From: an uncultured Eubacteriales bacterium | Lineage (GTDB): Bacteria; Bacillota; Clostridia; Oscillospirales; CAG-272 | Reading direction: 5' to 3' | Length of the DNA stretch: 64,000 nt | Assembly (NCBI GenBank): GCA_948467545.1 | Contig: CAOKER010000006.1 | Coordinates: forward strand, 66,772 to 130,771 | Shown here: one piece after another, positions 27,445 through 50,350 of the stretch | Position numbering within the stretch: the stretch's first letter is position 1 | Layout of the letters: each line of letters starts with the position of its first letter | The notes under the pieces: generated by a model | The model's input: the letters and a program-made list of their open reading frames with translations, nothing else | Told to the model about the DNA's origin: nothing | Databases searched by the model: none | Translations under genes and position numbers: made by a program

Positions 27445-27513
27445 TTTGCTCCGAGAGAAGCTATTTAAAGCGCAATTTCATTTTTTGTATTCTGTGTTTC
27501 ACACCCTTATTTC

Positions 27514-34008: not shown

Positions 34009-34410
34009 TTATATATCCAATCCCAATGAGACGACCTTGTACGCGCCGTCTATCTTTTTAATTTCTATAAGATAAAAACACCATTCCGGAGCATATCCGG
34101 TAATTGTAAAGTGATACGAATCGTCCATTATTCTCATTCTTTTCATGAAAAATTGAGGAATCACACAGTACTTTGCAGTCTTTTTATCATCTTCGCGGTA
34201 TATAATATATTCGGGTTTTTCTTCATAATAAATTTCATCCCTGTCTATATTACATCCGGCAAAATTCCAGTCCTTTATTGCCGCAAGTACAACCCTTTTT
34301 ATCTCCCTGTTTTCCTCTATACTCAGACTGAAGTTATTGGCATATACTGCATCCCACATAACCACATCCTTTAAATATAAATAGACAAAAAATACAGTCA
34401 GTACAATCAA
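34009..34410 (-). CDS. small N-terminally anchored protein (C-terminal IEIKKIDGAYKVV motif family)
   Basis: ORF track. One N-terminal hydrophobic helix. The C-terminal motif is shared with 36813..37217 (IEVEKIDGEWVAV). Confidence 0.55.
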   Translation of the reverse strand: MIVLTVFFVYLYLKDVVMWDAVYANNFSLSIEENREIKRVVLAAIKDWNFAGCNIDRDEIYYEEKPEYIIYREDDKKTAKYCVIPQFFMKRMRIMDDSYHFTITGYAPEWCFYLIEIKKIDGAYKVVSLGLDI

Positions 34411-34440
34411 GTCTTTTCATTTCGGCACCTTAAAATTCTT

Positions 34441-34665
34441 TTATCTGCCGGCGATAAAGACGCAATAATAGTCTTTATTCAGTTCGTCATATATAAATAT
34501 TGCTTTTGGATTCAGTCCCTGTTCTTCTTCAAGTTCGGTTTCAAAGTCACCGCTTGTTCGACTGACAATACTGCAGTATGAATTTTCAACCGAAATTTCG
34601 TCAATTCCGATTTTATCGCTGTCTATCACAAGCAATTCTATAATATCAATAACAAAATCGGGCAT
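34441..34665 (-). CDS. small acidic hypothetical protein
   Basis: ORF track. 74 aa with no recognisable motif. Confidence 0.4.
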   Translation of the reverse strand: MPDFVIDIIELLVIDSDKIGIDEISVENSYCSIVSRTSGDFETELEEEQGLNPKAIFIYDELNKDYYCVFIAGR

Positions 34666-34770
34666 TGCATGCCATACTTCCGAATTATCCTCTATACACC
34701 TCTCCGCAAGCTCCTGCTCCTCCGAATTTAAACAGAATTATCGGCTTTACATTTATTTTATTTTTATGTA

Positions 34771-35148
34771 TTATGAGTGAAAACCTCCCGCTCCGTATTC
34801 GTCAAAAATATTATGTATGTATTCCATGTCCTCTTTTGAAATATCATAATAGCGGAAAAGATATTGATACGAAGCACAGCTGTCCTGCGCCGGAAAATAT
34901 ACCCGCGTTCCTATCCTGATCGTCACATCAAAGCCAAATCCGCACGACGACTTTCCGCAGCGCTCGGCACTTTTCAATATACTCTTCACATTTTTCGACT
35001 CCTCCGCCGTCAAGGCCGCATTAACCTCAACGCCGTATTTGTCATATTTTATCGATACAGGAAATATGTAAAACTGAAGCTGATAAAAAACAGCCAAAAA
35101 CAGACATACCACTATTATCCAAAAGGATTTTCTTTTTATTATCTTCAA
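34771..35148 (-). CDS. small signal-anchored hypothetical protein
   Basis: There is no ATG. TTG at 35148 with GAGGTG 8 nt upstream gives MKIIKRKSFWIIVVCLFLAVF. The track start 35166 is also TTG but has no SD. Confidence 0.5.
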   Translation of the reverse strand: MKIIKRKSFWIIVVCLFLAVFYQLQFYIFPVSIKYDKYGVEVNAALTAEESKNVKSILKSAERCGKSSCGFGFDVTIRIGTRVYFPAQDSCASYQYLFRYYDISKEDMEYIHNIFDEYGAGGFHS

Positions 35149-35248
35149 ATTCAGAGCACCTCGCAATGTTTCATGATTTTGTCACGCAAAATCGCCGTCT
35201 GCGGCGGCGAAACGAAACTTGCATCTTAAAGTTTTAGCTTTAAGCTAC
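35146..35248 (-). repeat. dispersed intergenic element, family 1, copy 4
   Basis: Minus strand: gtagcttaaagctaaaactttaagATGCAAGTTTCgtttcgccgccgcaGACGGCGATTTTGCgtgacaaaatcatGAAACATtGCGaggTGCTCTGA. Confidence 0.6.
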
Positions 35249-35781
35249 TAATCCGGGCAGCTCGGATTAAATTCGGTTTCGTACGGTTCTCTGTCAAAGA
35301 TTACGTCTTTATCTCCCTGTACTATTCCGTAATTCTCTTTAAAGCAATACTCTTTCGACACCAGCAAAAATCCTTTTGACTCGTAATACGTAACTACGGT
35401 TTCGGAATTTTTATTCATTTTTTCATATAATCCGACATAATCTTTACCGTCGCAGGTTTTGGACGTAACGCCGATAAAAACGCTTGCTATGACGCATATT
35501 AAGGCTGCCAATACCGCCGCGATAACCGAAAAAAAAGTTTTTATAAATTTAGAGTGCAAGAACGAAAGAATTACTATAGCAGTCACCGCAGCCAAAATCG
35601 CATAGGCGAATATTTTCACGGTTAATATATACTTTACTGAAAATAAAAAATAAAGCACTAAAGAAAACAACGGGCAAAACATTAACAAGCATGCCGGGAT
35701 TGCCATACGATATTTTTTATATACTATACCCGTTATTAGCAGAATTCCCGATATCATGATGAGTACTAATTCATAAACCAT
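35248..35781 (-). CDS. 4-TM membrane protein with small C-terminal soluble domain (paralog of 37225..37749)
   Basis: ORF track. Same length class and TM layout as 37225..37749. Both end with a ...(D/Y)(R/Y)EP(Y/H)..E(F/Y)N... tail. Confidence 0.6.
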   Translation of the reverse strand: MVYELVLIMISGILLITGIVYKKYRMAIPACLLMFCPLFSLVLYFLFSVKYILTVKIFAYAILAAVTAIVILSFLHSKFIKTFFSVIAAVLAALICVIASVFIGVTSKTCDGKDYVGLYEKMNKNSETVVTYYESKGFLLVSKEYCFKENYGIVQGDKDVIFDREPYETEFNPSCPD

Positions 35782-36186
35782 TATTGTTACCGATTCCCTT
35801 GCGCAATTATTTGACTGATTTTTCGCCTTTTATACGGTCTCAGCCGACCGAGTGCCGTCCGGATTATATTTTAAATGCACAGTAATTTTATTATACAGTT
35901 TTCATCATAAAACGTCAATAGTTTTTTCCGTTTTTTTAAGAGAATGTGATGTTTTCGACATAGAAATATATAAAAAATCAATCCCCGACAAGCTCAGACT
36001 GTAACTCCTCGTTTTTTTATAAATTCCTGCTGCATTTATAATTATAATCTATAAATATAACATTATTTTTAAATATTCTTAAATTTTCCTTTTTATTTCC
36101 AATTTAATATTGATTGATAGAAACATTTCCGCATCAGCTTGGCAAAAACCGATAAAATAATAACCGAATAAGCACTGTGAGCCCTC

Positions 36187-36765
36187 TTATCTGACATTTC
36201 CCCTTGTAATTGTCACTCCTTTACACGTCAGACTTATTGTACTGAGCGAGGGCGTCAGCAATTCGTATCTGAGCCTTTTATCTTCCGTTACTGTCCATTC
36301 ATCGTAAGAATATTCGTCTATATCCGGATATCCCAAAGTTTCATCATTACGGATTTCCATACGAAAGTCCCTTACACCGTAAAAACCAAGTATATAATAA
36401 TCATCAACATGATATATTTCCAAATAAAAATGATCGTTCACTCTGTTTTTTGAGTTAACATATGAATATTTTGAAATATTCCAGTCATGAAATCTGCTCT
36501 CCCTTTCATGTATTCGAGTAAATTTTTTTGACAAAAGCTGTTTCGCTTTTTCGTATTCCATTTCATACAATGCGAAATTATTCGTCCATTCCATAATATA
36601 CGGATCATCTTTCGGCAGCCGTAAATTCTGCGTTCTGATCCACAGCTCCGGTTTGAAAAAACGAATTTTAATCACCTCCGATTTATTTGAATTTATAACT
36701 ATTTGAACAGCGGAGCGCAAAAAGGCAGCGCTTTCCGCTGATTCCGCATTTTCATTTTTCCGCAT
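36187..36765 (-). CDS. hypothetical cytoplasmic protein (start uncertain)
   Basis: ORF track. No motif recognised. The N-terminal ~40 aa look non-native, so the true start may be internal. Confidence 0.45.
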   Translation of the reverse strand: MRKNENAESAESAAFLRSAVQIVINSNKSEVIKIRFFKPELWIRTQNLRLPKDDPYIMEWTNNFALYEMEYEKAKQLLSKKFTRIHERESRFHDWNISKYSYVNSKNRVNDHFYLEIYHVDDYYILGFYGVRDFRMEIRNDETLGYPDIDEYSYDEWTVTEDKRLRYELLTPSLSTISLTCKGVTITRGNVR

Positions 36766-36812
36766 ACCTCAAAATTTCGCAAATGAACCGAGACGTAAAT
36801 ATGCTTTACGGT

Positions 36813-37217
36813 TTAAGGATCCTGATGTACAACGACAGCAACCCACTCTCCGTCTATCTTTTCTACCTCGATTTCCGAACCGATATTTGCAGAGCCGCAA
36901 ATACAAACGCCGCTCTTATCAAAAGTATTTATACTATAGCGAATCCAAAGACTGCCCTTTTTACTTCCGTGCCATGCCCAAACAGGTCTCATCTCCAATT
37001 CTACCCTATCGGCTTCATGTGCGTCGTATGAATAATACCAACCGTAAGCTTTCAATTCATCGGGAATATAAACATTTCCCTGAAGAATTCCCTTTGCATG
37101 AAAGTAAACACCGCTGAGAGAAATAAACATATACGCTTCAACTGCAATAAATGTCAAGACCGCTGCTGCCGGCACAATCAGAATTCTTTTCATTTTCTTT
37201 TTCATTTTCTTTTTCAT
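36813..37217 (-). CDS. small signal-anchored protein with MKKK-repeat N-terminus
   Basis: MKKKMKKKMKRILIVPAAAVLTFIAV. The C-terminal motif EIEVEKIDGEWVAVV is shared with 34009..34410. Confidence 0.55.
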   Translation of the reverse strand: MKKKMKKKMKRILIVPAAAVLTFIAVEAYMFISLSGVYFHAKGILQGNVYIPDELKAYGWYYSYDAHEADRVELEMRPVWAWHGSKKGSLWIRYSINTFDKSGVCICGSANIGSEIEVEKIDGEWVAVVVHQDP

Positions 37218-37225
37218 TTTCTTTT
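37191..37225. repeat. 12-nt tandem repeat (cattttcttttt x2 plus one 11-nt copy) across a gene start
   Basis: Units at 37191..37202, 37203..37214 and 37215..37225. Each unit encodes MKKK on the minus strand. Confidence 0.85.
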
Positions 37226-37749
37226 CATTTCACTTCCTCATTATATTCTCTTCTATGCGGTTCATAATCGAAAATACCGTCAAGACTGCTCATTATTCCG
37301 ACGTATGTATCCTCAAAAAGAATAATCCTTCGCCATAAACAACGGAGATTTTGTTTCGTGATAAGTAACAATAACCGAACAAAATCAAAATTTAAATAAA
37401 TTCCCGCATATGTCCGTTCATCAAGGCTTTTATAGCATACACCTATAACATCTTTATAGAGATTATACATTAAACAAGAAGCTGATAAGGCTATTACGCA
37501 GAAAATACTTCCTATAATCTTCATTGTAGAAAAGAAAAAAATACAAATGGTTACTGCAAAAAGAATTATGTATATTGCTACCCTTATATTGGGTATATAT
37601 CTTAACGACAAAACAACATCCGCAAATATCGACGACAGCGAAAACAATGCCGATATACACGCAAATATTATCAGAATTTTCTTTTCACTCTTTATTCCTA
37701 TCAGCAAAAATATAATCGAATATATTAAAAATATAATATCCAGAATCAT
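37225..37749 (-). CDS. 4-TM membrane protein (paralog of 35248..35781)
   Basis: ORF track. Four hydrophobic helices. The stop TGA overlaps an out-of-frame ATG (ATGA). Confidence 0.6.
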   Translation of the reverse strand: MILDIIFLIYSIIFLLIGIKSEKKILIIFACISALFSLSSIFADVVLSLRYIPNIRVAIYIILFAVTICIFFFSTMKIIGSIFCVIALSASCLMYNLYKDVIGVCYKSLDERTYAGIYLNFDFVRLLLLITKQNLRCLWRRIILFEDTYVGIMSSLDGIFDYEPHRREYNEEVK

Positions 37750-38015
37750 AATTGTTCCCTACATAGTTTTACCAACAAAAAAATTAACGACAATTTTTCG
37801 GTTTATTATACATAATTATATTATTTTTCCATTATTTTGTCAATGTTCTTTTACAATATTTTGTGTTACCGCAAAAAATCTGTATTATATGTCCGAAAAC
37901 AAAAATCCCGACAAACTCTGAGCTCCGCATTCGCGCGACTTTTTGAGTTCGCCGGGTACTTTTCATTTACCCTATAAGTTTTATATTTATTATGCACAGA
38001 ATCCAAAATCGTCGG

Positions 38016-38448
38016 TTAATCATACGATGTTCTTTCAAACCTTTTTCTGTATTCTCCGCCCCAGGGAGAATGATACCAATACGGCCAGACAAAACTGTCC
38101 GCATTTCCTCCGGCTTTAGTCCATACAGTATGACATCCGTCCTGCGGAATCCATTCATTATCTATGAATTTATATACAATCAGACTTCCGTATGAACCGG
38201 TCTCCCATTCGTTTATGTAATATACCTCCGCATAATCCTCGGTATACTTTTATAACCTTTGCCCAATCATAGTTGTCAACAAACCATTCAAATTCTGAAT
38301 ATCCCCTGAATGCTTCAATAAGCTCTTCTCCGTGCCGGTTTGTGTCAATTTCACATCTGATCAGCGCCGCAAACCACGGAAGCTGTATTACCAGCAGAAC
38401 CGTTACTGTTATCAATAATTTTTTCAAAATTCGCTCCTCATATAACAA
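38016..38448 (-). pseudogene. frameshifted small signal-anchored protein (or homopolymer sequencing error)
   Basis: The track ORF 38170..38448 turns to nonsense after ...DWAKVIK. The adjacent frame then reads KYTEDYAEVYYINEWETGSYGSLIVYKFIDNEWIPQDGCHTVWTKAGGNADSFVWPYWYHSPWGGEYRKRFERTSYD to TAA at 38016..38018. One extra A in the A4 run (plus-strand T4 at 38248..38251) restores a ~144-aa ORF. Confidence 0.6.
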
Positions 38449-38740
38449 ACCTAAACCTTATTATGATATACTAAATATTACTTGCCGACACAAGAAAAGA
38501 GACAAATGTCTCCGAACACTGTGAATCCATCCTCACAATTCACACTGCAAACGCATATACCGGTCGTCAATAAGGCGCAAAACGCCGTAACGAGCCGTCG
38601 GACGGCGAATCGTACTGCCCAACCGCCAATAATAAGAAATCCTATGAACTCCGCCGCATATAAAGCAGAGGATATCTTGCTTTACGTTATATTTAGCGAA
38701 TACAGTGCTTTACCTTTATATTCAGCGAATATAGTTTCGA

Positions 38741-39721
38741 TCAATAGAGTGAAATCAACCGTGACAGCAAGCTTTTTTCTGATACATAAATTTTCTCAAG
38801 AGTCAATTTCATCGCGGGTATTTTGTTCTTATCGTATTTTTTTGCATAATACAAACACATATTCCATAAGAATTTTGCGTCGGCCACTACCGAACTGTAA
38901 GCACTGCTTATAGAATCATTCATGCAAAAATACTCTTCGATTTTTTTGATACGTTCCAACATAAACTGTTTATGCTCCAAAATCATCTTAAAAGGACGCA
39001 ATTCAAAATAAAATACATCCGAATCTTTGTCATGAAACATTTCAATATATTTTATTAGATATTTATGAACGATAATTCCATAGGCGGTTGTGTTTTCTTC
39101 CAAACTATTATTTGTTATCGGCGGATCAAGATGCTCCTGAATTTTGGTTTTTATTATATACGGATCAAATTCTATGTTAATTTGCATTGGTTTCATAGCA
39201 ATAAGACAACCGCAACTTCCCATTTTTTCGGTCGATTTTCTCGCTCTTTCGAGACATATCTGAGGCATTTGAAATACACGGTATCGCATATTAACATCAT
39301 ATGCATATACGCTATACGTTTTTTCAATTTGGTTATATCCGCAAATCAGCCCGTCATGCAGATAATGCTTATTATGATATCCATATCTCCCTTTCATATA
39401 ATAATCATCTATCGCTCCAAAATAGACATAATATCCTTTGTCTATCATATTCCTTATAACGCGGTTAACCGAGCCGTCGAGAAAAGTAAGCAAAATTTTT
39501 TGACGCTCTATAAACGGATTGTCTTCCGGTCCTGACTGACATACATCCACATGAGGCTGAAAGAAACCGGAAGGGTTCTCGTCTTGTACAGACAAAACCA
39601 TAGAATTATTTAAATACCAATTTCTCATGCTGCCGTTACTATATAATATGGATGTCACTGTCCCCTGTCCATGACTGACACTGTAAATAGGTGAAACTAG
39701 CGGAAGATTAACATTTTTCAT
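38741..39721 (-). CDS. uncharacterised 326-aa protein, divergent third member of paralog family X (BtrH_N/DUF4872-like?)
   Basis: GYYVYFGAIDDYYMKGRYGYHNKHYLHDGLICGYNQ and FELRPFKMILEHKQFMLERIKKI align with GEYIFCCPNEGYF...DFDHECLLWGLDYE and IDMRYIRSFLEHKHLMNLRLKYL of the island-1 proteins. Confidence 0.5.
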   Translation of the reverse strand: MKNVNLPLVSPIYSVSHGQGTVTSILYSNGSMRNWYLNNSMVLSVQDENPSGFFQPHVDVCQSGPEDNPFIERQKILLTFLDGSVNRVIRNMIDKGYYVYFGAIDDYYMKGRYGYHNKHYLHDGLICGYNQIEKTYSVYAYDVNMRYRVFQMPQICLERARKSTEKMGSCGCLIAMKPMQINIEFDPYIIKTKIQEHLDPPITNNSLEENTTAYGIIVHKYLIKYIEMFHDKDSDVFYFELRPFKMILEHKQFMLERIKKIEEYFCMNDSISSAYSSVVADAKFLWNMCLYYAKKYDKNKIPAMKLTLEKIYVSEKSLLSRLISLY

Positions 39722-39844
39722 TTGTTTTATATCCTTTCATCTGATGCAAAACGGATAATTTATTATAAATGCTCTTAAATATCGGATATTTTCGGATTTA
39801 TCTTCTATCATTCAGGTATAATATTCCGCTTGATATTCTATTAT

Positions 39845-41662
39845 TCAGGTATAATATTCGGATTGAGAATTCCATAAAGCTTTATATAACCCACCATCAC
39901 GTTTTAAAAGCTCTTCATGCCCTCCCTGCTCTGCAATGCAGCCGTCTGAGATAACTATAATTTTATCACAAAATCTGCATGATGACAGCCTGTGTGATAT
40001 ATATATTGCAGTTTGCCCATCTATAATTTCCTGAAACTTTGAATAAATCTCATATTCGGCAATAGGATCAAGCGCCGATGTGGGTTCGTCAAGTATTACG
40101 CATTTGGAATTATTATAAATCGCTCTTGCCAATGCAATTTTCTGAGCCTCGCCGCCTGATATTTCAACTCCGCTGTTATCATAATGGCGATACAGATAGG
40201 TATCTACACCATCCGGTAATTCATTGAATTTATCACCGAATCCGCATTTTTCAAGACATTCCTTTGCCCGCAGTTCATCGATAGGTTCTCCGAAAGAGAG
40301 GTTTTCGCCAAGGGTAAACGCAAATATTTTAAAGTCCTGAAAAACAACTCCGAGCATTTTTACATATTCATCATAAGAGTAGCTCCAAATATCAGCCCCG
40401 TTTAATAAAATCTTTCCCTCACACGGCTTATACAGCCGGCACAGCAATTTTACTATTGTTGTTTTTCCGGAGCCGTTTAATCCCACCAGCGCTACTTTTT
40501 CTCCCGGAGTAATTTCAAATGTTACATCTTTCAAAACATATATTTCGGCGCCCGGATATTTGAACGCCACATTCTCAAATTTGATCGAACAACACTTCTC
40601 ATCGCTTATTACAGCGGTTTTTGCGTTTTCAGTTGTCTTTTCTTCCGGAAGATCCAAAAATTCAAAATATTTTTCAAGATATTTATTATTGTACAGCAAT
40701 GATTTTGTTTGACTGATTAAATCCCCGAAAACACCGACAAGCATAACCGACGTAGTAACATACTTAGATATGCTTCCGATTGTGATACTTCCCACAACAC
40801 ATCCGTAAATTGCAACAATATAGAGTATGACGGAAAGCAAACCCAATGCGGTTTGTACGATTATATTTTTTTTAACTATTTTCGTTTGTGTTTCAATTAA
40901 TATTCCGTTGCCCCTGTCAAGTTCTTTTGAATGCGTATTGTGAATAAAATCCTCAAGATGGAAAATGCGAATGTCCTTCCCCGATTGATAATTCTCATAC
41001 AAATCTGTATAATAATTGCAAATTTCATTATGCTTTACCAATTTGTCGTACATACCAAAACGCATAGACTGAATCTTTCCTTCGGTAAGATACTTGATAA
41101 AAACAACAGCAATAATTCCGAATATGCAGAGTATTCTCAATCCTGCAGAAAATTCACTCGAAAGCAAAAATTCGCACAAAAGGGAAAAAGCGTAAACTAT
41201 ATTGGAAATACTGGATATTAATCTTGTGATAAACATATTAAAATAATGCAGGTTAAACCCGTTTTGATTCGTAGAATCTATATATGTTGTAAGAGCATGA
41301 ATCTCATTACTTTCCAAGAGCTCATACTTCATCTTCATTGACTTATCTGTCCGTATCATTCTCTCATTTGTAATAAAATAATTGTACCTGAGATCCTTCA
41401 TACGGTTCAGCCAAGCCATAGCCATGGAAAATAACGCATTAAACAAAAGGAGAAACAAGACAATACCCCAAGTTCTTTTTTGATTAATGCTGTCTTCCGC
41501 CAGTGAGTCGATCAACATAGCGGAAACATAAATATCAACATATGCCTGTATCGGGCTGACGACAGAAATGAAAATATTTTGAACAGTATATACCGCGTCC
41601 ATCCTCAGCAGTGTTTTCAAACCGCGAAGAATAAGCCGTATATTCTTTTGTATTTTTTTCAT
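39845..41662 (-). CDS. ABC exporter, fused permease/ATPase
   Basis: Walker A GLNGSGKTT, signature ISGGEAQK, Walker B VILDEPTSALD. No N-terminal C39 peptidase domain. Confidence 0.85.
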   Translation of the reverse strand: MKKIQKNIRLILRGLKTLLRMDAVYTVQNIFISVVSPIQAYVDIYVSAMLIDSLAEDSINQKRTWGIVLFLLLFNALFSMAMAWLNRMKDLRYNYFITNERMIRTDKSMKMKYELLESNEIHALTTYIDSTNQNGFNLHYFNMFITRLISSISNIVYAFSLLCEFLLSSEFSAGLRILCIFGIIAVVFIKYLTEGKIQSMRFGMYDKLVKHNEICNYYTDLYENYQSGKDIRIFHLEDFIHNTHSKELDRGNGILIETQTKIVKKNIIVQTALGLLSVILYIVAIYGCVVGSITIGSISKYVTTSVMLVGVFGDLISQTKSLLYNNKYLEKYFEFLDLPEEKTTENAKTAVISDEKCCSIKFENVAFKYPGAEIYVLKDVTFEITPGEKVALVGLNGSGKTTIVKLLCRLYKPCEGKILLNGADIWSYSYDEYVKMLGVVFQDFKIFAFTLGENLSFGEPIDELRAKECLEKCGFGDKFNELPDGVDTYLYRHYDNSGVEISGGEAQKIALARAIYNNSKCVILDEPTSALDPIAEYEIYSKFQEIIDGQTAIYISHRLSSCRFCDKIIVISDGCIAEQGGHEELLKRDGGLYKALWNSQSEYYT

Positions 41663-41795
41663 TTTTTAATATCTCCTTTCGTATGAGATAAAAGCCATCG
41701 CCGATTTCGATTCATCAAAATGCAGGTCTGTCCCACCGGCAAGGTATAAAACTTTTGACTGTTTTGACTGGAAGATCAAACCTTCATTGCAATTC

Positions 41796-43607
41796 TTATA
41801 CATAATAAGCGCTTTGCTTCTCAAACATTTCGCTGTATAAGCCGCCTGCTTTTACCAGTTCATCATGCGTTCCGACCTCGGCAATCTCTCCGTGATTCAT
41901 GACAAATATTCTGTCACAAAATTGAGCGGACGCCAGCCTGTGAGAAATATATATTGTTGTTTTTCCTTTTGAAAGCTCTGCATACTTCTGATACAGTTCT
42001 CTTTCTGCTATCGCGTCCAAAGCGGCAGTAGGCTCATCCAAAATCAAAATCGGAGCATTTCTGTATATAGCTCTTGCAATCAAAAGCTTCTGCTTTTCAC
42101 CGCCTGATAAATCTACTCCGTTCTCATTCATCTGCTTGTTGAGTTTTGTATGTATGCCGTCGTCTAACGACATAACCTTATCGTATAGGCCCACCATTTT
42201 TAATGCCCATTCCACTCGCTCCGTATCCGATTCATCCTCAGCCATACATGAAATATTGCTCATTATGGACAGCGGCAAAAAGGTAAAGTCCTGAAAAACT
42301 GCTGAAAACATTGAATAGTATTTGTATATGTTATATTCCTTCATATCTTTTCCGTTTACATAAACATTTCCGTGAGTCGGAGTATACAGACCGCACAAAA
42401 CCTTTACAAGCGTTGTTTTTCCCGCCCCGTTTAAACCGACTATGGATATGTTTTCACCCGGTTTTATATCAAAAGATATATTTTTTAATGTATTATCATC
42501 AGCAGATATATATTTATAATCCAAATTTTCAACTTTTATCGCGCATCCTTCATTGATTGCAGATACATCCGCACCGTCCGACCTATTCCCTTTTTCGGCA
42601 TAGTTTACAAATTCTCTGTAATCGTTCAACTGAAAACTGATTCCGCTCATATCTGTAAATGTACTGATAATTCCGCCTATCATTGACGCATAGCTTCCGA
42701 CCGCGCCAAGATAGAACACAAAATTGTCAACGGTAATTTGACTCTGTAAAGCCATTGAAATCAAAATAAAATATGCAAATCCGTCACGCAGCAAAATCAG
42801 CAGTATATCGGCAAAGTTGGAGAGAAAGTTTTTCCGCGCGACCTTGATATTCCAACTCATTCGCCTCTTCATGGTATCCCTGTACTTTTGAATAATCCAA
42901 TCGGACAAGCCGTATATTCTTATATCTTTAGACGCATCAAACGAGCTCCCTATATTCGCAATATACCATAGGCGTTTATCCAGCACCGACATTTCTTCTT
43001 TGTTTTTAAACTGGAACTTTTGCACATATCTCGCCGTAAAAAAGTTAAGAATCGGCATAATCGTAAGATACACCACAAGAAAAGGATTTGCAAATGACAA
43101 AACTGCGGAAAACAGGAAATATTTTAATACGTTTGTGATCAGGCTGTTTAAATCGACCGAGATTCTTTCAACCGCTGAAATTCCTCCGCTCTGCCACAGT
43201 ATCTGATCGGAGCGATCCATCAACGTACGGAATTCCTGAGACTCTATGTTTTCATAGTCGGTCGACAAACATTTTCTCATTTTATTTTTAATCATATGAT
43301 TTAAAAAAAACATTGAAGATACAGACTGCTTGTTTCCGATTAGAGACGACAATATTTGACAAATAATCATCACGAAGAATATACATACAAAGCGTACTGT
43401 GAAGACCTTATAATCCGATTGTGACATGGCCGCCTGAACCGCAAGCTTGGGCACATATATGCCTAAAAAGGCTATTGCCAAATCGAAAGGTATTGTCGTC
43501 AGCAACCATACCAAAGACATTTTGTTGAATTTTAACTGCATCTTTAAAACATATACAATATTATTAAACAGTGAATATTTCGGTTTAACGGTTGTTTTTT
43601 CTTTCAC
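41796..43607 (-). CDS. ABC exporter, fused permease/ATPase
   Basis: Walker A GLNGAGKTT, signature LSGGEKQK, Walker B LILDEPTAALD. No C39 domain. Confidence 0.85.
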   Translation of the reverse strand: MKEKTTVKPKYSLFNNIVYVLKMQLKFNKMSLVWLLTTIPFDLAIAFLGIYVPKLAVQAAMSQSDYKVFTVRFVCIFFVMIICQILSSLIGNKQSVSSMFFLNHMIKNKMRKCLSTDYENIESQEFRTLMDRSDQILWQSGGISAVERISVDLNSLITNVLKYFLFSAVLSFANPFLVVYLTIMPILNFFTARYVQKFQFKNKEEMSVLDKRLWYIANIGSSFDASKDIRIYGLSDWIIQKYRDTMKRRMSWNIKVARKNFLSNFADILLILLRDGFAYFILISMALQSQITVDNFVFYLGAVGSYASMIGGIISTFTDMSGISFQLNDYREFVNYAEKGNRSDGADVSAINEGCAIKVENLDYKYISADDNTLKNISFDIKPGENISIVGLNGAGKTTLVKVLCGLYTPTHGNVYVNGKDMKEYNIYKYYSMFSAVFQDFTFLPLSIMSNISCMAEDESDTERVEWALKMVGLYDKVMSLDDGIHTKLNKQMNENGVDLSGGEKQKLLIARAIYRNAPILILDEPTAALDAIAERELYQKYAELSKGKTTIYISHRLASAQFCDRIFVMNHGEIAEVGTHDELVKAGGLYSEMFEKQSAYYV

Positions 43608-43662
43608 TTAATATACACCCCTTCGGCAATAAATAAGATGCAGCTGAATAAACGGCAATTTA

Positions 43663-45459
43663 TTATGTAAAATATTCAATTATCTCTTCCGCCATTCCGG
43701 ATTTTTCATCCTCATCGTCGAGAATAAAAACAGAAATTGAAAACTCGTCTTTGAGTATTTTTTTAAAATTTAACAAATCATCGATATCCGCACGAACAGA
43801 TAAAGTTCCCAGTGTATTCCATTTTACGGTTTTTAAAATCGGGAAAATTGCAATCCCGATAACATCTGATATTACAATACTTTCCAAGTAACGAATTGTT
43901 CTTCTGATATAATCAATATCATCGAAAATATTAACGACAAGTATGACAGCGTCCGGATTTACACCAAGAAGAAAAAAATGATTTGTAAGTGCCATATCCC
44001 GTACATTACATACTTGCATGGGAATAGTCTGTGATTGAAGCCCTGTAATAATTATATCCGGATTAATGTCTTCAATTGCTCCAAGAACATGATTTACCGC
44101 TGCAATCATCTCAATTCCGTTATCGACTTTGACAGTTGAATTATAGCCCATCGGAAATACCATATCTGCTCCCAACAAATATCCGGAAGGTTCGGTAGCC
44201 AATAATCCGACATTAATGCCTCTTTTCCTCAGCAATCTTTTAATATCCAGTTGAAGACTGTATTTTCCTTGTCTTGGTGAAGTACCCGCAATACATAATA
44301 TAGGCTTTCCAATTTGCCTAAGCTTCCCGTTATAATTATTAGGTATGTTATCTTGTGTAATCTGTGGAGTATAGCAAGCAACAGCCCCGAACTTTTCCGA
44401 ATATACAGATACATCATCAAAAGAGTAAATTTTTTTGCCATATTCCGCACATTTTTTTACAATATAATTACTGTAATTAAAACGCGATAATTTATTTATT
44501 TCATCCAAATGCCCTAAAATAACCGTATCAAAATCATCTTCCCAATTAATATGATCTACATTTTGAATTAATATTTCTGGTTCTCGATTAACGCTTTTAC
44601 CAATATTTTTCAAATATTTAATGTCGTATACACCTACAATGGTGGGAATAATATCATTATAGTGCAATAACATAGTCGAAATTTCTTTGTTATACGGAAA
44701 CATAATAGCTTTATTTATATCAAACGGCAATTTGACCGGTAATGGCTCTGCTGCTTCTAATACCTTTATAGATTTATTCATCAGCATGATATGCAATTCA
44801 TCTAAAGGAATTCTGCCGCCTCTATATATAAACATATTGGCAATAATTCCGGTAATATATGGAGCGCTGAAGCTTGAGCCAAAAACATCAATGTATTTAG
44901 CTCCTATTCCTTTCAACCGCTGTGCTGTTCCGATGGCCGAAATATTAATCGGAGAATTTTTTATATAGTAAAATTCATTTCTTTTTACACATTGTGAATT
45001 GCTATCGACTCCAATTACAAACGGAAACGCAGCGGGATACGACAATGCCCCGTTATTATCATAAGACGATATTATCACACATCCATTATCGCAAAGTTCT
45101 TTACAAATGCCGCGCAATTCAAATATCTGATCACAAAAAGATACACCGAGACTTAAATGTATAATATCCGGTTTCACATTTTCAAGTAAATATTTTAATC
45201 CATATATTAACTTTTCCGTAGTTATTTCTTCGATTTCATCATCGAATAATTTTAGTATGAACAGCGATGCATCGGGAACGAAAGTTTTAATGATATTTGT
45301 AACCACAGTTCCATGTCCAGTATGATCTTGGAAATCGCTTAATAATTGAAAGCCATCGTTATCTCCATTTGGAACTATGGAAAGTCCCTCATAATTACAA
45401 ATATCATCAACCCCGCTGTCTATTATGGCTATTCTTACCGAATAAGCTTTATCCGACAT
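43663..45459 (-). CDS. S8 (subtilisin-like) serine peptidase fused to a C-terminal P-loop (DUF1611-like) domain
   Basis: Triad contexts IAIIDSGVD (Asp), HTGHGTVVT (His) and GSSFSAPYITG (Ser). The C-terminal third has a Walker-A-like CIAGTSPRQGKYSL followed by ...LATEPSGYLLGAD..., reminiscent of DUF1611. Confidence 0.7.
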   Translation of the reverse strand: MSDKAYSVRIAIIDSGVDDICNYEGLSIVPNGDNDGFQLLSDFQDHTGHGTVVTNIIKTFVPDASLFILKLFDDEIEEITTEKLIYGLKYLLENVKPDIIHLSLGVSFCDQIFELRGICKELCDNGCVIISSYDNNGALSYPAAFPFVIGVDSNSQCVKRNEFYYIKNSPINISAIGTAQRLKGIGAKYIDVFGSSFSAPYITGIIANMFIYRGGRIPLDELHIMLMNKSIKVLEAAEPLPVKLPFDINKAIMFPYNKEISTMLLHYNDIIPTIVGVYDIKYLKNIGKSVNREPEILIQNVDHINWEDDFDTVILGHLDEINKLSRFNYSNYIVKKCAEYGKKIYSFDDVSVYSEKFGAVACYTPQITQDNIPNNYNGKLRQIGKPILCIAGTSPRQGKYSLQLDIKRLLRKRGINVGLLATEPSGYLLGADMVFPMGYNSTVKVDNGIEMIAAVNHVLGAIEDINPDIIITGLQSQTIPMQVCNVRDMALTNHFFLLGVNPDAVILVVNIFDDIDYIRRTIRYLESIVISDVIGIAIFPILKTVKWNTLGTLSVRADIDDLLNFKKILKDEFSISVFILDDEDEKSGMAEEIIEYFT

Positions 45460-45463
45460 GCCG

Positions 45464-46810
45464 TTATACCTCTTCTATACATTTTGCATTGGCAATTAAC
45501 TTCTTATTTTTGTATATATATTGAAAATCATTTTTGAATAATTCATCACATTGCGAGGGATAGTGAAGTATTTTTGTATTTAAAGGGCATGTGGCGCCCA
45601 TACATTCCGGATAATGAATACAAGCAATGCACTGTTTGCCAGGAGATCTTCCAAGCCATTTTGACATTTTTCCTATATGAATCTGCATAATTCCGTTCTC
45701 TGTAATATTCCCGATGCAATTTATATTTTTATATTGAATGCTATCCATTACCATTGCACATTTATATACATATCCGTCATAATTTACAACAAAACCATGT
45801 CTTTTAGAAGCTGTGCAAATCGAACCGCTTTTATCATTTCGGTCAAATCCGCCATTAAATGTAAACCCTTTTTCCGATAGTTTTTTTAACCATTCAAAAC
45901 CGTCTTTATCCTGTAGCAGTAGATTCCTATTTTTATCAATTTTTTCGCCTCCCCAGTCACGCACATATTCCCAAACTATCGTAAAATGCGGATCATTTGC
46001 AAAATTGTTCTCCAACCAATCTATATGTTCATTTAAAAACGGAAGTGTTTGAGATGAAACATTTATTCTAAGTGCAATAATGAATTTATATTTGCTGAAT
46101 TTCTCTTTGATTGTCAATAAATTTTTAACAATCATATCAAATGAGTCATCTTTTGTCTTATGAGGCCGAAGTCTATTATGAATCTGTTTGGGACCATCCA
46201 AAGTGACTTGATAAAATCGAAGATGGGTTTTAACAAGGGAACCAAATGTTAATTCATCTAACTCATATCCATTAGTAGTTATGCTTGAATATAACGGCTT
46301 TTTATATTTTTTACAAATAGTTCTTATTTGTTCCATCATAGATATAATTAATTTTTTAGCCAACAAGGGTTCTCCGCCAAACCAAGATACAAGCAAACCG
46401 TTATACTTACGCAGATTTTTTTCTATATAAAGTATTATACTTTGAGCAGTGATATCTGACATGTAATAATAAGGCTCTTTTTGATAGCAATAAACACAGT
46501 TAAAATTACATGCATTAGTCGGTATTATCGTAAGTTCCAGTCTATTATTTTCATAAATTTCAGAATTGTAATAATAATTAACGATTTCCGCTTCATCAAT
46601 ATCGTCTTCTATAATAAATCCCCAATTATACAACTCCCGCATTTTTTCATCTAATGTATCGGTCTCAAAAATACCTTTATCTAAAAGTTCGTTCACGGTT
46701 TCAATCATATTGCCTTTAATACGCAATACTTTTTGCGATAAAGTGTTTTTTAATATCATATCGTTATCATCGAAAGTCTTGAAAATATATGACGAAACTT
46801 TATATTTCAT
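45464..46810 (-). CDS. radical SAM/SPASM peptide-modifying enzyme with N-terminal RRE-like domain
   Basis: CNFNCVYC (CxxxCxxC, nt ~46487..46510) and GGEPLL. The C-terminal Cys cluster CTASKRHGFVVNYDGYVYKC...CIACIHYPECMGATCPLN is typical of SPASM domains. About 90 aa precede the rSAM core, as in RiPP maturases. Confidence 0.8.
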   Translation of the reverse strand: MKYKVSSYIFKTFDDNDMILKNTLSQKVLRIKGNMIETVNELLDKGIFETDTLDEKMRELYNWGFIIEDDIDEAEIVNYYYNSEIYENNRLELTIIPTNACNFNCVYCYQKEPYYYMSDITAQSIILYIEKNLRKYNGLLVSWFGGEPLLAKKLIISMMEQIRTICKKYKKPLYSSITTNGYELDELTFGSLVKTHLRFYQVTLDGPKQIHNRLRPHKTKDDSFDMIVKNLLTIKEKFSKYKFIIALRINVSSQTLPFLNEHIDWLENNFANDPHFTIVWEYVRDWGGEKIDKNRNLLLQDKDGFEWLKKLSEKGFTFNGGFDRNDKSGSICTASKRHGFVVNYDGYVYKCAMVMDSIQYKNINCIGNITENGIMQIHIGKMSKWLGRSPGKQCIACIHYPECMGATCPLNTKILHYPSQCDELFKNDFQYIYKNKKLIANAKCIEEV

Positions 46811-46867
46811 GGTTCTAACCTTTCATAACAATTTTAGATGATCCGAAATATTTTATTATATACCGTA

Positions 46868-47671
46868 TTATTGATTTATCAGATCATTAACTGCGTTCAA
46901 ATAATCATTAAAAGATAGTAAAGCATCTTGTTGAAACAGCTCGTCGGGCAAACTGATTTTAAATACATCCTCAATTTCACATATAACAGATATACTCTGA
47001 AGTGAATCAAGCTCTAAGTTGTCGCAAAGATTATCCTCAGATATTTCTATTCCGGAATTCTCAAATATCATTTTTAATTTTTCTGAAGTTCGCGATCTTT
47101 CGCTATTCTTCTTTTTTATCCGACTATCATCTTCATCGTGTGATTTACGATATATTTCAATCTTATTCTTTGTTTTTGATCCCGCCAAATTATAGAGCGA
47201 TTTTGAGATAATTGCCAGAGGTGTTTGCTTCAGTATGGCATAATCGGTTATGACATCTATAACCTGATCATCTGCAAACGACGCTGCGGTATTTATTAAA
47301 ATTTCAGGCGAACAATTCTTACCAATAGAATATTTAACAATTTTTTTTATACTATTTGAACTTATATAAGGGCAAACCTTCCTCAACAATATTTCCGCGG
47401 GCAGTTGACAGTCTATGGCTTTTTTGACAACTTGATCACATAAATCCACAGTTATAAAAGAATCGACTGCATCAATCAATACGAGACAATCGACATTTTC
47501 TTCGAGAGCTTTTTTTAACAGTCGGTTTGATATGTTTGAGTCAAAATACATCAAAAATTTCAGTATTTCAGTTACATCTGCGCTTTCGTCCGTTAAATAA
47601 GCTTCGGCAATAAGGTTAGCAGCAACAGATGTCAAAGATGGGATATCATCTAATCTATTATTGGTATTCAT
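46868..47671 (-). CDS. helical-repeat protein fused to a C-terminal acyl/peptidyl carrier protein-like domain
   Basis: The last ~75 aa, KLKMIFENSGIEISEDNLCDNLELDSLQSISVICEIEDVFKISLPDE...FNDYLNAV, show the carrier-protein DSL Ser context. The N-terminal part has about four ~30-aa repeats (..KKAI....PEILI..). Confidence 0.6.
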   Translation of the reverse strand: MNTNNRLDDIPSLTSVAANLIAEAYLTDESADVTEILKFLMYFDSNISNRLLKKALEENVDCLVLIDAVDSFITVDLCDQVVKKAIDCQLPAEILLRKVCPYISSNSIKKIVKYSIGKNCSPEILINTAASFADDQVIDVITDYAILKQTPLAIISKSLYNLAGSKTKNKIEIYRKSHDEDDSRIKKKNSERSRTSEKLKMIFENSGIEISEDNLCDNLELDSLQSISVICEIEDVFKISLPDELFQQDALLSFNDYLNAVNDLINQ

Positions 47672-47722
47672 TTAATCTTTCTTGATATATAGATATCATT
47701 TTCCTTTCACAAATATCTAATC

Positions 47723-47737
47723 AAGGATAAGTTATCC
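47723..47737. promoter_or_regulatory. perfect 7-1-7 palindrome AGGATAAgTTATCCT (possible operator)
   Basis: Seen at 47723..47737, 52-66 nt upstream of the carrier-fusion gene start, in the 196-nt spacer after the peptide gene. Confidence 0.3.
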
Positions 47738-47867
47738 TGCTTTAGTAAGGTGATTCAGTGGAACCGACCTGCCATAAAGGTGGTGGACATCTTGCTTTTT
47801 ATTAACATAAATAACAAAGGGATGCAGTATTAAATGCCAAACAGTGCCAAGGAATAGTTATATATAT

Positions 47868-47960
47868 TTATCTGCCTATACAACAAATTCTACATCCGAA
47901 TTCCGGATATGAATAAAGACGAACTTTTTGCATCTTCTTACTTTTTTTCTTTAACTTCAT
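47868..47960 (-). CDS. 30-aa Cys-rich candidate precursor peptide MKLKKKSKKMQKVRLYSYPEFGCRICCIGR (not in the ORF track)
   Basis: Hand translation of the minus strand. ATG at 47960..47958, AAAGGAGG at 47975..47968 (7-nt spacing), TAA at 47870..47868. It is the first ORF after the promoter at 48067..48095 and heads the rSAM operon. Confidence 0.65.
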   Translation of the reverse strand: MKLKKKSKKMQKVRLYSYPEFGCRICCIGR

Positions 47961-48066
47961 GATTTCGCCTCCTTTCTTTACCATCCCTCTGTTATTTATA
48001 TCCAAAACATTGGAAACATACGACAAATTAAATTGTATTTTCAACTTTTATCTTTATTATAACTAT

Positions 48067-48095
48067 ATATTACCATATATATGAACATCTGTCAA
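48067..48095 (-). promoter_or_regulatory. sigma-A promoter (TTGACA-17 nt-TAATAT, TGg extended -10) of the peptide/rSAM operon
   Basis: Plus-strand tgtcaa at 48090..48095 and atatta at 48067..48072. The leader to the peptide ATG is ~100 nt. Confidence 0.6.
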
Positions 48096-48343
48096 TATAT
48101 TTTTAAGAAAAAATTTTTTATTTTTATATTTTATCGCCACTAAAATATAAAAATTATATTTCTCGTACTCCTCTCTGCTTTGGAGGCGATAGATATCTTG
48201 ATTTAACTATTCGTAATTTGTTTTTATTAATTAGCTGGATATATTCTTTTGATTTGCATAGTATATTTTCCTTTATTTTAATTTAAATCATGTGTCCTGT
48301 TCTATATGTATAGTTATACAAACACCTGACATGACACTGAGCA

Positions 48344-49372
48344 TCAATCGACAATTTCAAATACCTTTACACCATTCCATGTTGAAATGACAATTATATT
48401 CGGAGACAGCTCCGCGATATTCCAAACACCGTAATCTATTTTTTGCTTTCCTAAAATCGACTTTGTTTCCGCATCTACAACAAATATACCGAGATGTGAG
48501 CCGACATAATATCTTTTTCTGTCATACGAAAGACATACTTTATTTAAACTGTCATATAATGATATATTCTCCATTGCAAATGCATTTGACAATTTTTTCA
48601 GTTCATAAATATTGTCACTTTCCATATTCATATCCGAAAAAACACCGGAAAATGAAGCAGTAATTACGCCCGGCTCAGGCAGCGAAATACTTTCCGCTAT
48701 TTTACCGTAAACACTGCAGCGTAATGTCTTTTTATGACCATATATAATTACAGTGTTTGTCTCAGACTCATACTCGGCACAGCGTATAGCATCACCGCTT
48801 ATATTTTCAACAGGATATTCTTCAAATGAAACTCCGTCAAACCAAATCATGTTCCAACAATCGGTTTGATCAAGTTCAAATTTTTTTCGATCCAGCCCAA
48901 ACAACAGATATTTGTCTAATTCTTTAACAGGCATAATACTGACAAGCCAATATTTTTCTTCAAGAAGATCTTTAAATGACATATTATCATTTAAATTGTA
49001 ACAACGCAATGCAGAATTTAACGTTTTGTCATTGCAAACATTGAAATAAAGCGATCTCTCATGCAATGACCAACATCCTCTCCCCTCCAAATTGCCGCTA
49101 TACTTGCCTCGGATAGTATATTTCTCCACAATAAAGTCATATAAATCAACAAGATAAAATATATTTTCTGCGGAAATAAGCAGCAGCTGTGTTTCATCCG
49201 GTGAAATAAAAGCATGATATACATAAGATAAATTTTCTGCCGTAAAAAGCAAATCAAGCTTTCTGCTGCATATAAATGCACGCCTACCCGTGCAAAACAC
49301 ACTGTATTTTTCGGAAAAGCAAAAATTCTTTGCATTTTTCATAAAATCATATTTCAATTGTTTGAATTTCAT
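48344..49372 (-). CDS. hypothetical protein (repeat/beta-rich, possibly propeller-like)
   Basis: ORF track. AT-rich like the island. I prefer ATG 49372 (MKFKQLKYDF) to the TTG track start 49417. No motif recognised. Confidence 0.5.
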   Translation of the reverse strand: MKFKQLKYDFMKNAKNFCFSEKYSVFCTGRRAFICSRKLDLLFTAENLSYVYHAFISPDETQLLLISAENIFYLVDLYDFIVEKYTIRGKYSGNLEGRGCWSLHERSLYFNVCNDKTLNSALRCYNLNDNMSFKDLLEEKYWLVSIMPVKELDKYLLFGLDRKKFELDQTDCWNMIWFDGVSFEEYPVENISGDAIRCAEYESETNTVIIYGHKKTLRCSVYGKIAESISLPEPGVITASFSGVFSDMNMESDNIYELKKLSNAFAMENISLYDSLNKVCLSYDRKRYYVGSHLGIFVVDAETKSILGKQKIDYGVWNIAELSPNIIVISTWNGVKVFEIVD

Positions 49373-49906
49373 TATAAAAATTTCTCTTTCATAATAAACA
49401 CGGACGGCATTTTTCAATCCGGCTGATCAATATGCTATTGATTCAATCCAATAAATAATATGTATTCTTTTTTAAGAAAAAAAGGTTCAAAAAACGGATA
49501 GCCGTTTTCGGTTATAAACTTGCACGGGGTGTTAAAATCATAAAATTTATACGGTAACGGCTTTCACGTACAGTTTGCAATTATATCATTAACAAAGTGA
49601 CTGCATATCATGATAAAATTCTCAATTATATTATAATTATTCAATTTTATCTTTTAAATCAATCATTCTTTATGCTTATTGTAACACAAACTCCGATTTG
49701 TTTCAATCGCAAATCGGAGTTTTATTAATTTTATTTGTATTTTTACAGCGGTTATTATGAAAAATTCACACTTCACATATTTCAAAACAAACGCCTGAAA
49801 AAAGCTCCTTTCGCTTTACTAAAAAATCTTCAAAATTTTGCTGCCCCACACTTTAATGTCGGCGCAAAATAGTTTATTATTATGCACACAAAGGAGGTGG
49901 TAAAGC

Positions 49907-50350
49907 TTGAATACGGACGATTCGACAAAATCGGACGACGGCATGAATACGAAATTCGGCAGAAACGCAAACGAAAAGTCCGAAAGCATGGAGGTCCGCA
50001 CAGCGGAAACGGGGCGCGAAGAATTTTTCTCCGTATTGTCCCCAAAAGAAGAAAAGCTCCGGGACAAACGACTGAAAAAAATATGCCGTCTCGCGGACCG
50101 CGTTATAGACAGACTTACCGGCGCAGTCGAGGAGCTCGAAGCTACAGATACTCAGCGCTTCAGGCAGATTGTCGCCTCTATAAAAGAAATAAAGGATATA
50201 CAGATGCTTGATTCGCCGTCCGAACGTCTTGAAAAACAGCTCAAGCTTAAAAACCTTGAAAGGCAGATGCTTGAATCCGAAACCGAAAACACTTCAGATT
50301 CCAAAGAAATTCTTGTCCATATAGAGGGAGACGAGGGATACAGCGAATGA
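49907..50350 (+). CDS. phage protein, candidate small terminase subunit (positional)
   Basis: TTG start with AAGGAGG 9 nt upstream. ATGA overlap with terL. No motif recognised. Confidence 0.4.
   Translation: MNTDDSTKSDDGMNTKFGRNANEKSESMEVRTAETGREEFFSVLSPKEEKLRDKRLKKICRLADRVIDRLTGAVEELEATDTQRFRQIVASIKEIKDIQMLDSPSERLEKQLKLKNLERQMLESETENTSDSKEILVHIEGDEGYSE

Follow-up and report, generated by a model that had tools for sequence, protein, structure and literature searches.

A carrier protein fused to a five-repeat helical scaffold in a radical SAM peptide-maturation operon: a rare variant of a catalogued cassette

A maturation cassette for cysteine-rich (Cys-rich) peptides, made up of the families TIGR04065-04069, was reportedly defined in silico by Haft and Basu in 2011. 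The cassette has been observed in Roseburia (PMC4573289) and in Paenibacillus SacP23 (PMC10731318), with its carrier protein left without an assigned function. Here we describe a gene in an operon of related content from an uncultured Eubacteriales bacterium. The window, meaning the whole stretch of DNA analysed, comprises 64,000 nucleotides of contig CAOKER010000006.1 (assembly GCA_948467545.1, positions 66,772 to 130,771), and positions are counted from its first letter unless another contig or locus is named. The gene (46868..47671, minus strand) encodes a protein of 267 amino acids that joins a helical-repeat (alpha-solenoid) domain to a carrier protein. On balance, we lean towards reading it as the carrier component of a radical S-adenosylmethionine (SAM) peptide-maturation cassette to which a helical scaffold has been joined. 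The locus is a rare fused variant of a recurrent, catalogued and biochemically unexplored peptide-maturation cassette, not a new kind of system. The presence of a carrier with an S8/DUF1611 protein in a radical SAM peptide cluster is itself recurrent and already catalogued bioinformatically, and is not unique to this locus (PMC4573289, PMC10731318).

The carrier (PP-binding) domain spans amino acids 190-267 (46871..47104, minus strand). Pfam PP-binding (PF00550) matches amino acids 209-248 with 23.7 bits, against a gathering score of 20.8. The whole protein was modelled with AlphaFold2 (AF2) from 40 aligned sequences (mean pLDDT, the predicted local distance difference test score, 95.8; pTM, the predicted template modelling score, 0.78). 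In this model the C-terminal domain is a four-helix bundle (pLDDT about 95) whose helix II begins at Ser223 of the motif LELDSLQ. Foldseek places the domain on DltC, acyl-carrier protein (ACP) and glycyl-carrier structures with target-normalised template modelling (TM) scores of 0.6-0.79 and root-mean-square deviations of 1.8-2.9 Å. A profile built from 43 relatives matches 119 solved carrier proteins (best E value 8.6e-9) and aligns Ser223 to their phosphopantetheine site. The serine, whose codon lies at 47003..47005 (minus strand), is the predicted 4'-phosphopantetheine attachment site, as judged from the translation, its conservation and its place at the N-terminus of helix II, and it is invariant (43 of 43 aligned relatives). 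These results show that the C-terminal 78 amino acids have an acyl/peptidyl-carrier fold with a conserved attachment serine. An initial annotation, made from the sequence alone, had proposed a C-terminal phosphopantetheine-binding domain, named structure prediction of a four-helix carrier fold as a check, and allowed that the carrier might be degenerate. Both the domain and its fold are borne out. Degeneracy is rejected because Ser223 is invariant and because a related metagenomic cluster (locus L043) has its own Sfp-type phosphopantetheinyl transferase (PPTase), encoded directly beside the carriers.

The domain is acidic (isoelectric point, pI, 4.05) and falls in its own sequence clade of carriers, with the consensus LELDSLQFISIIxxIExxFxIxIPD. 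NCBIfam gives weak matches to many ACP families. The fusion protein scores 17.9 bits with TIGR04069, and its close relatives 18-30 bits, against a cut-off of 70; membership of TIGR04069 was rejected on this score. The genome has a single PPTase, which is of the Sfp type (AASDHPPT_N plus ACPS, 211 amino acids) and is encoded on another contig. Clade conservation, the profile matches and the presence of a PPTase argue, on sequence grounds, for a functional holo-carrier. The earlier observation that the window has no adenylation, ketosynthase or condensation domain and no PPTase holds when the whole genome is searched: four AMP-binding matches, one ketosynthase and the one PPTase were found, all outside the window, and no condensation domain was found anywhere in the genome.

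The N-terminal part of the protein consists of five helix-pair repeats of 30 amino acids each (amino acids 13-162; 47186..47635, minus strand; pLDDT >95). Helical repeats had been proposed before, and that part of the proposal stands; the count of about four does not. In the AF2 model, each 30-residue repeat forms a pair of helices, and the last pair is followed by one 41-residue helix (amino acids 165-205) and then the compact helical domain. The repeat period is exactly 30 amino acids, the in-register BLOSUM62 sum of the five units lies 8.4 standard deviations above that of 5000 shuffles (z = 8.4; reached by 0 of 5000), and the autocorrelation is positive at lag 30 only. Repeats are in register across the four solenoid-carrier homologues, and each unit conserves A(I/L) in its first helix and P(F/Y) at its end. 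The solenoid domain (amino acids 1-165) is acidic (pI 4.5). The long helix that follows (47057..47179, minus strand, from the AF2 secondary structure) is a charged linker that runs on into carrier helix I and has a pI of 10 over amino acids 166-195. No Pfam or NCBIfam model matches the repeat domain, and the Foldseek matches are weak (PUF-8, tetratricopeptide repeats (TPR) and designed repeats; E >0.02, TM ≤0.45). Homology to PUF or TPR proteins was rejected given these weak matches and the differing anatomy, 30 amino acids and two helices here against the 36-residue, three-helix PUF repeat. A search of sequencing runs matched one weak metagenomic RNA run (share 0.10).

The operon order in the window is precursor, solenoid-carrier fusion, radical SAM/SPASM enzyme, S8-DUF1611 protein, two ATP-binding cassette (ABC) exporter subunits and a protein that we call family X. 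Among 1.8 billion representative proteins, searched exhaustively with HMMER, there are three full-length relatives of the fusion (P0002, P0003 and P0005, with identities of 51, 35 and 31%) and about 75 free-standing proteins of 70-105 amino acids that match the C-terminal domain only. The genes for all three relatives lie between a precursor and a radical SAM gene, with an S8-DUF1611 gene next, and full-length fusion genes hold the same position in 4/4 independent operons, the window's included. The solenoid-carrier gene is always directly between the precursor and radical SAM/SPASM genes, followed by S8-DUF1611 and ABC exporter genes. Local hidden Markov models of the carrier clade, of the S8-DUF1611 fusion and of family X were built and run against every locus retrieved. 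Wherever flanks suffice, the carrier clade occurs beside radical SAM and S8-DUF1611 genes (L020, L024, L027, L035, L036 and L043), with an ABC pair completing the recurrent core, and the carrier is linked to both genes in at least 10 loci. L020 and L024 represent two other genera of the same family, and L027 is from an Erysipelotrichaceae metagenome-assembled genome. The conserved synteny agrees with the initial annotation's choice of candidate partners for the carrier, namely the S8-DUF1611 fusion and family X.

The 2.47-Mb genome of the window encodes at least two further complete cassettes on contig C1, at about 259-263 kb (L039 6847..14551) and about 272-279 kb (L038 7981..15457). Each has a radical SAM enzyme, an ACP-like protein, an S8-DUF1611 protein, two ABC genes and its own Cys-rich precursor(s). 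These precursors are unlike that of the window: one cassette encodes MKKLRKPTSKRTENLNKVRVLGTMVASEPGSKYQGCQNPRGCGCTAC and the other two copies of ..VILCAGIAPMATYEADCWSGVCYSS.CYS.GC. Also in this genome, a further S8-DUF1611 gene on contig C7 (C7:119655-121451) is interrupted by an in-frame TAA. Of 401 sampled species of the source's bacterial family, 22, from 14 genera, encode the S8-DUF1611 fusion, often in several copies per genome; the solenoid-carrier fusion occurs in 1 of the 401, the window's genome only. A DNA search seeded with the S8-DUF1611 alignment returned three loci, two of them already in our set.

A profile of the N-terminal domain detected seven protein clusters among 5.8 billion, all of 265-272 amino acids or fragments of such proteins, and neither this search nor the HMMER search found a free-standing solenoid protein. 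A separately encoded solenoid partner was rejected, as the two matches to the N-terminal part alone are a fragment at the end of a contig (P0015) and a remnant with a frameshift (P0084/L011). Locus L021 (11102..11452; G243 contig C31) has an open reading frame (ORF) of 116 amino acids whose similarity is confined to the first three solenoid repeats, the sequence after them being unrelated; it probably derives from a solenoid-carrier gene broken by a frameshift. In L020, the same precursor family and a 51%-identical S8-DUF1611 protein occur with a plain, free carrier of 86 amino acids, and free-standing carriers in orthologous operons are 76-88 amino acids long. Because L020 uses a free carrier and because enzyme lengths are equal in fused and unfused operons, the solenoid appears to be an accessory acquisition outside the core chemistry.

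Two related clusters have additional content. The metagenomic contig that encodes P0097 (L043 1..13973) has, in order, genes for a radical SAM enzyme, an ACP, a 43-residue Cys-rich precursor, two ABC proteins, an S8-DUF1611 protein, a 308-residue protein (N-terminal YDCYQNN), a second ACP, an Sfp-type PPTase, an integrase, family X and another ABC protein. The 308-residue protein has no Pfam match and may be a cysteine-bearing BtrH-like enzyme. In L035 (5903..16491; GCA_021442595.1), a YcaO protein and a SAM methyltransferase are added to a core of radical SAM enzyme, ACP, DUF1611 fusion and ABC proteins, which suggests that more than one core chemistry can be paired with the carrier/DUF1611 module.

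The precursor gene of the window (47868..47960, minus strand) encodes a 30-residue peptide, MKLKKKSKKMQKVRLYSYPEFGCRICCIGR, and is preceded by a strong ribosome-binding site, AAAGGAGG. Upstream is a putative promoter-like site of the sigma-70 type (TTGACA-17-TAATAT with an extended TG; 48067..48095, minus strand; 10/12 in a consensus scan). Homologous precursors precede all four operons with a helical-repeat ACP and one operon with a stand-alone ACP. They share the pattern ..VxL[YF]xxPE[FY]GCxxCC.., are Cys-rich, 28-33 amino acids long and basic (pI 9.5-10.1), and every one of them contains the PE[FY]GC motif. Those of the three full-length homologues are MKLRKKEKKIQRVRLYGYPEFGCSTCCIGK, MKLKKSAKKVRQVTLFANPEFGCNTCCNWNAGC and MNLKKRSFKVKKVKLYSQPEYGCKVCCNF, and that of the L020 operon, which belongs to the same family, is MKLVKNVKKIQKVKLFSYPEFGCNVCCN. 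No NCBIfam family matches any of the precursors.

The remaining genes of the operon, also on the minus strand, encode the candidate partners of the carrier. The radical SAM/SPASM peptide maturase (45464..46810, 448 amino acids) has the Pfam domains Radical_SAM, Fer4_12 and SPASM. Its best NCBIfam matches are the Clo7bot, TIGR04463 and CefB maturases, all under their cut-offs, and its closest solved structure is CteB (5wgg). With a radical SAM core and a SPASM domain, encoded beside a conserved Cys-rich precursor, it has the features of a ranthipeptide/sactipeptide-type maturase. The next gene (43663..45459, 598 amino acids) fuses a QhpE-like S8 serine protease to a DUF1611/TIGR04066-like P-loop domain. 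Peptidase_S8 and DUF1611 both score above their Pfam thresholds, and the NCBIfam matches are to QhpE (E 1e-29) and TIGR04066 (E 7e-14). The Asp-His-Ser motifs of the protease and a Walker-A-like motif, GTSxxQGK, are invariant in four orthologues. Full-length and profile searches of the PDB with this protein returned subtilisins only. The ABC exporter subunits follow, one of 603 amino acids (41796..43607), recognised from the ORF and sequence motifs and from orthologous genes that carry ABC_tran, and one of 605 (39845..41662), recognised from the ORF and orthologous genes.

The operon ends with the family X protein (38741..39721, minus strand; 326 amino acids), which AF2 and Foldseek indicate to have a CcbD/AziU2-U3-like (BtrH-type) fold. 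The AF2 model (pLDDT 89.5) has an N-terminal alpha/beta domain followed by three long C-terminal helices. Over its whole length it matches AziU2/U3 (E 2e-8, TM 0.63), and it matches CcbD, including complexes of CcbD with a peptidyl-carrier protein (PCP), at E about 1e-6 and TM up to 0.66. Overall, the fold matches have E values of 2e-8 to 3e-6 and TM scores of 0.57-0.66 over about 360 columns, and both parts of the architecture, a papain-like N-terminal domain and a helical C-terminal domain, are present. H122, Y141, H250 and K251 are invariant, H122 being the strand histidine, and Asp142 is mostly kept. Pfam finds no domain in the family X copies of the window or in 31 close relatives, none of which attains the BtrH_N gathering score of 29.7 bits. 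Among 25 aligned members, one reaches BtrH_N (E 0.0018, 19 bits, on the His strand) and one DUF6005 (E 4e-5). A sequence search of the PDB with the family X profile gave nothing meaningful; the fold search alone matched. The likeness of family X to BtrH suggested by the initial annotation is therefore upheld by fold and gene context, and is not upheld by the Pfam BtrH_N threshold or by a conserved catalytic cysteine. As the BtrH class is defined by its catalytic triad, family X is not a member.

Gene context links family X to carriers elsewhere, and family X is present in radical SAM cassettes that contain an ACP. A 37%-identical family X paralogue on contig C7 of the window's genome is translationally coupled between a 76-residue ACP and an AMP-binding ligase, and the same core of ACP, family X and AMP-binding ligase is found in two metagenomic contigs, making three operons in all. 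The C7 operon (L037 6040..12895; also L045 and L046) encodes an NTP_transf_5 nucleotidyltransferase, a thymidylate-kinase-like P-loop protein, the ACP (76 amino acids), family X (335) and the AMP-binding ligase (455), followed by a CYTH protein in the relatives and a protein of about 375 amino acids. The ACP, family X and ligase genes overlap by 4 nucleotides each, there is no radical SAM enzyme in operons of this type, and the whole looks like an uncharacterised carrier-dependent pathway.

Clusters in two other genera of the family (L023 7386..15696 and L022 1664..11572) encode two AMP-binding-type enzymes, a 91-residue ACP, a radical SAM/SPASM enzyme, a protein of 287-305 amino acids and an ABC exporter; they have dedicated carrier ligases but no S8-DUF1611 fusion. 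The gene for family X follows the exporter in L023, and in L022 an incomplete family X ORF is located some 6 kb past the cluster. A DUF1611-like identity for the 287-residue protein of L023 was rejected, as it shows no similarity.

The window itself has a second setting for family X, an island of 27-32% GC (22101..28572) that is even more AT-rich than that of the operon. Two family X paralogues, 55% identical to each other (22101..23156, plus strand, and 27514..28572, minus strand), flank an ABC exporter gene pair (23428..26957, minus strand). No carrier, radical SAM enzyme or obvious precursor was found in this island, which shows that family X is able to work with exporters alone. The operon and a downstream array of small membrane-protein genes form another low-GC island (31-37% GC; the 34-50 kb region, 34000..50000). 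Its flanks have 44-52% GC, and a phage terminase/packaging module adjoins it from 49.9 kb. The low GC content and phage neighbour are consistent with horizontal acquisition of the island.

How might the carrier act? In the reading we favour, Ser223 would be phosphopantetheinylated by the genome's sole, Sfp-type PPTase, and the resulting holo-carrier would hold a thioester-bound acyl or aminoacyl group. Loading or transfer of this group would fall to the ATP-binding DUF1611 domain that is joined to the leader protease, and the family X protein, with its CcbD/BtrH fold, would probably help to hand it on. The radical SAM enzyme, which is closest to thioether-forming ranthipeptide-type maturases, would cross-link the Cys-rich core. 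QhpE removes a leader peptide, and by analogy the S8 domain would cut off the basic leader. After cross-linking and cleavage, the carrier-dependent step would add or move the group held on the phosphopantetheine of Ser223, and the ABC pair would export the final product. DgcN, to our knowledge the only characterised DUF1611 member, is an acetyl-CoA-dependent N-acetyltransferase, an activity that would be in keeping with a step in which an acyl group passes from a pantetheine thioester to the N-terminus exposed by cleavage. Given the invariant Walker-A-like motif of the DUF1611 domain, ATP-dependent loading could occur equally well.

The five-repeat solenoid would be a lineage-specific addition that most plausibly docks the carrier to a partner, which may be the basic leader, the protease fusion or the radical SAM enzyme. 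The chemistry would not depend on it, since in orthologous operons whose precursors belong to the same family the carrier stands alone, with 76-88 amino acids. Binding of the leader by the solenoid and carrier is an attractive possibility because both are acidic (pI 4.5 and 4.05) and the leaders are very basic (pI 9.5-10.1).

A carrier-dependent tailoring step on the peptide is the best reading of the locus, an unproven one that we infer from domains, conservation and synteny, and several observations weigh against it. No adenylation, acyltransferase or ketosynthase enzyme that could load the carrier is recognisable in the operon, nor is a PPTase encoded in the window. Scores with the named ACP families, TIGR04069 included, are far below the cut-offs. 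Searched on its own, the DUF1611 half finds no relative by sequence in the PDB that could point to its chemistry. Near its N-terminus, family X conserves neither a cysteine nor any other nucleophile, and so it does not complete a Cys-His-Asp triad; it is absent from the cassettes L024, L027 and L035, and it occurs beside ABC exporters with no carrier nearby, both in the island at 22101..28572 and in L044. The role proposed for the solenoid is drawn only from its fold and from the contrast with unfused operons. In the literature searched, there is no experimental work on any member of the cassette, including TIGR04066/04069-type proteins.

The main rival to a tailoring step involves no thioester chemistry. 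The ACP-like domain would remain in the apo form as an acidic protein- or peptide-binding module and, with the solenoid, would chaperone the basic leader or bridge the radical SAM enzyme and the protease. Such an adaptor would account for the failure to find a loading enzyme in the operon and for the contrast in charge between the fusion protein (solenoid pI 4.5, ACP domain pI 4.05) and the precursors (pI 9.5-10.1). The solenoid loosely resembles peptide- or RNA-binding repeat scaffolds, and the scores with ACP family models are weak. Structural roles of ACPs are also known, as in complex I, and several of the best profile matches are subunits of this kind. However, a pure binding role does not require Ser223 to be invariant in 43 diverged relatives, L043 has a dedicated Sfp-type PPTase beside its carriers, and AMP-binding ligases are coupled both to family X and to more distant carriers in the group. 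Since the invariant serine and a relative with a PPTase inside its cluster both weaken it, the adaptor role seems unlikely to us.

A bolder form of the tailoring reading is a thiotemplated step on a ribosomal peptide, in which the DUF1611 domain spends ATP to charge the phosphopantetheine with an acyl, aminoacyl or peptide group, the family X protein, lacking a cysteine, completes the transfer, and the solenoid clamps the carrier to the basic leader, making it a substrate-tethered carrier. If true, ribosomal and carrier-dependent biosynthesis would be combined in a new hybrid, and DUF1611 would gain a new enzymatic role; we regard the full scheme as distinctly unlikely.

The peptide itself might instead be the cargo. 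The DUF1611 domain would use ATP to activate a carboxylate of the precursor (the C-terminus or the Glu of PEFGC) and park the peptide on phosphopantetheine, the solenoid would hold the leader, and family X would resolve the thioester, for example by cyclisation or transfer to an amine. BioD/CobQ-type P-loop enzymes activate carboxylates as acyl phosphates, and the Walker-A-like motif of the DUF1611 domain is invariant. The PE[FY]GC motif is present in every precursor, solenoid fusions are confined to operons with precursors of this family, and family X has a CcbD-type fold. Yet none of this is direct evidence for a peptidyl carrier. DgcN is an N-acetyltransferase rather than a ligase, and family X lacks a nucleophilic cysteine and is absent from several cassettes. 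We find a peptide-bearing carrier very doubtful. That the protein is an unrelated passenger of the island, serving another pathway such as DltC-like lipid or cell-wall acylation, would suit the DltC proteins among its best structural matches but is close to refuted by synteny, given the same gene position in four independent operons, carrier linkage in at least 10 loci and an operon without DltA/B/D-like genes.

Carrier proteins are a hallmark of non-ribosomal and polyketide assembly, and in the literature searched those of radical SAM peptide cassettes are catalogued in databases and never explained. The locus offers an entry point to the question of what a carrier does in a ribosomal peptide pathway. 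The operon is compact and intact and has a precursor of 30 amino acids, which suits heterologous expression. Its natural solenoid fusion points to a physical partner of the carrier, and its family X protein has paralogues hard-wired to ACP and adenylating genes. The identity of the cargo would define a new tailoring reaction of ribosomal peptides and a function for DUF1611-type domains. Should the carrier be merely an adaptor, the finding would be a modest structural curiosity.

So, is the operon a member of the TIGR04065-04069 cassette? It shares with that cassette a Cys-rich precursor, a radical SAM/SPASM enzyme, a DUF1611-like protein, an ACP-like protein that has kept its serine, an S8 protease and ABC exporters, and the defining context of radical SAM maturase, TIGR04066/DUF1611-type protein, subtilase and ABC exporter is complete. 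However, each of its parts scores far below the family cut-off (17.9 of 70 bits for TIGR04069, 51.6 of 200 for TIGR04066 and 80 of 500 for TIGR04068), its radical SAM enzyme is nearer to the Clo7bot, TIGR04463 and CefB maturases, and its precursor is in no family. It also differs in the fusion of S8 and DUF1611 domains, the 190-residue helical-repeat extension on the carrier and the appended family X gene. By sequence comparison, the operon is best described as a sister system, a diverged version of the cassette rather than a member. The systems of QhpD/QhpE, which mature quinohemoprotein amine dehydrogenase, and of the CteB-type ranthipeptide maturases similarly combine a radical SAM/SPASM enzyme acting on a Cys peptide with a cytoplasmic subtilisin-like leader protease, but they have no carrier protein or DUF1611 domain, and the window's proteins score below their family cut-offs.

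The carrier domain resembles the type II carriers AcpP, AcpM, DltC and the Bradyrhizobium glycyl-carrier in its four-helix fold, in the DSL serine that starts helix II and in the acidity of that helix. Unlike them, it is fused to an alpha-solenoid through a 41-residue helix, belongs to its own clade and has no cognate ligase in its operon. The papain-like two-part enzymes CtaG, BtrH and AsbE, with CcbD as a related concept, are carrier-dependent amide-forming ligases with a Cys-His-Asp triad (PMC12865890). Family X shares the two-part architecture and the strand histidine H122 with CcbD (PDB 7yn1; 9dkr with PCP), CtaG/BtrH/AsbE and AziU2/U3 (PDB 8gs1), and it is gene-coupled in other operons to carriers and AMP-binding ligases. 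It differs from these enzymes in lacking a conserved nucleophilic cysteine, in scoring under BtrH_N and in occurring with exporters alone, and here the acceptor would be a ribosomal peptide. Fusion of a carrier has a precedent in MllDE of methylolanthanin biosynthesis, in which a carrier protein is fused to a CtaG-like transacylase (PMC12865890). MllDE illustrates how a free carrier can become fused, although its partner is an enzyme, whereas the partner in the window is a non-enzymatic repeat scaffold.

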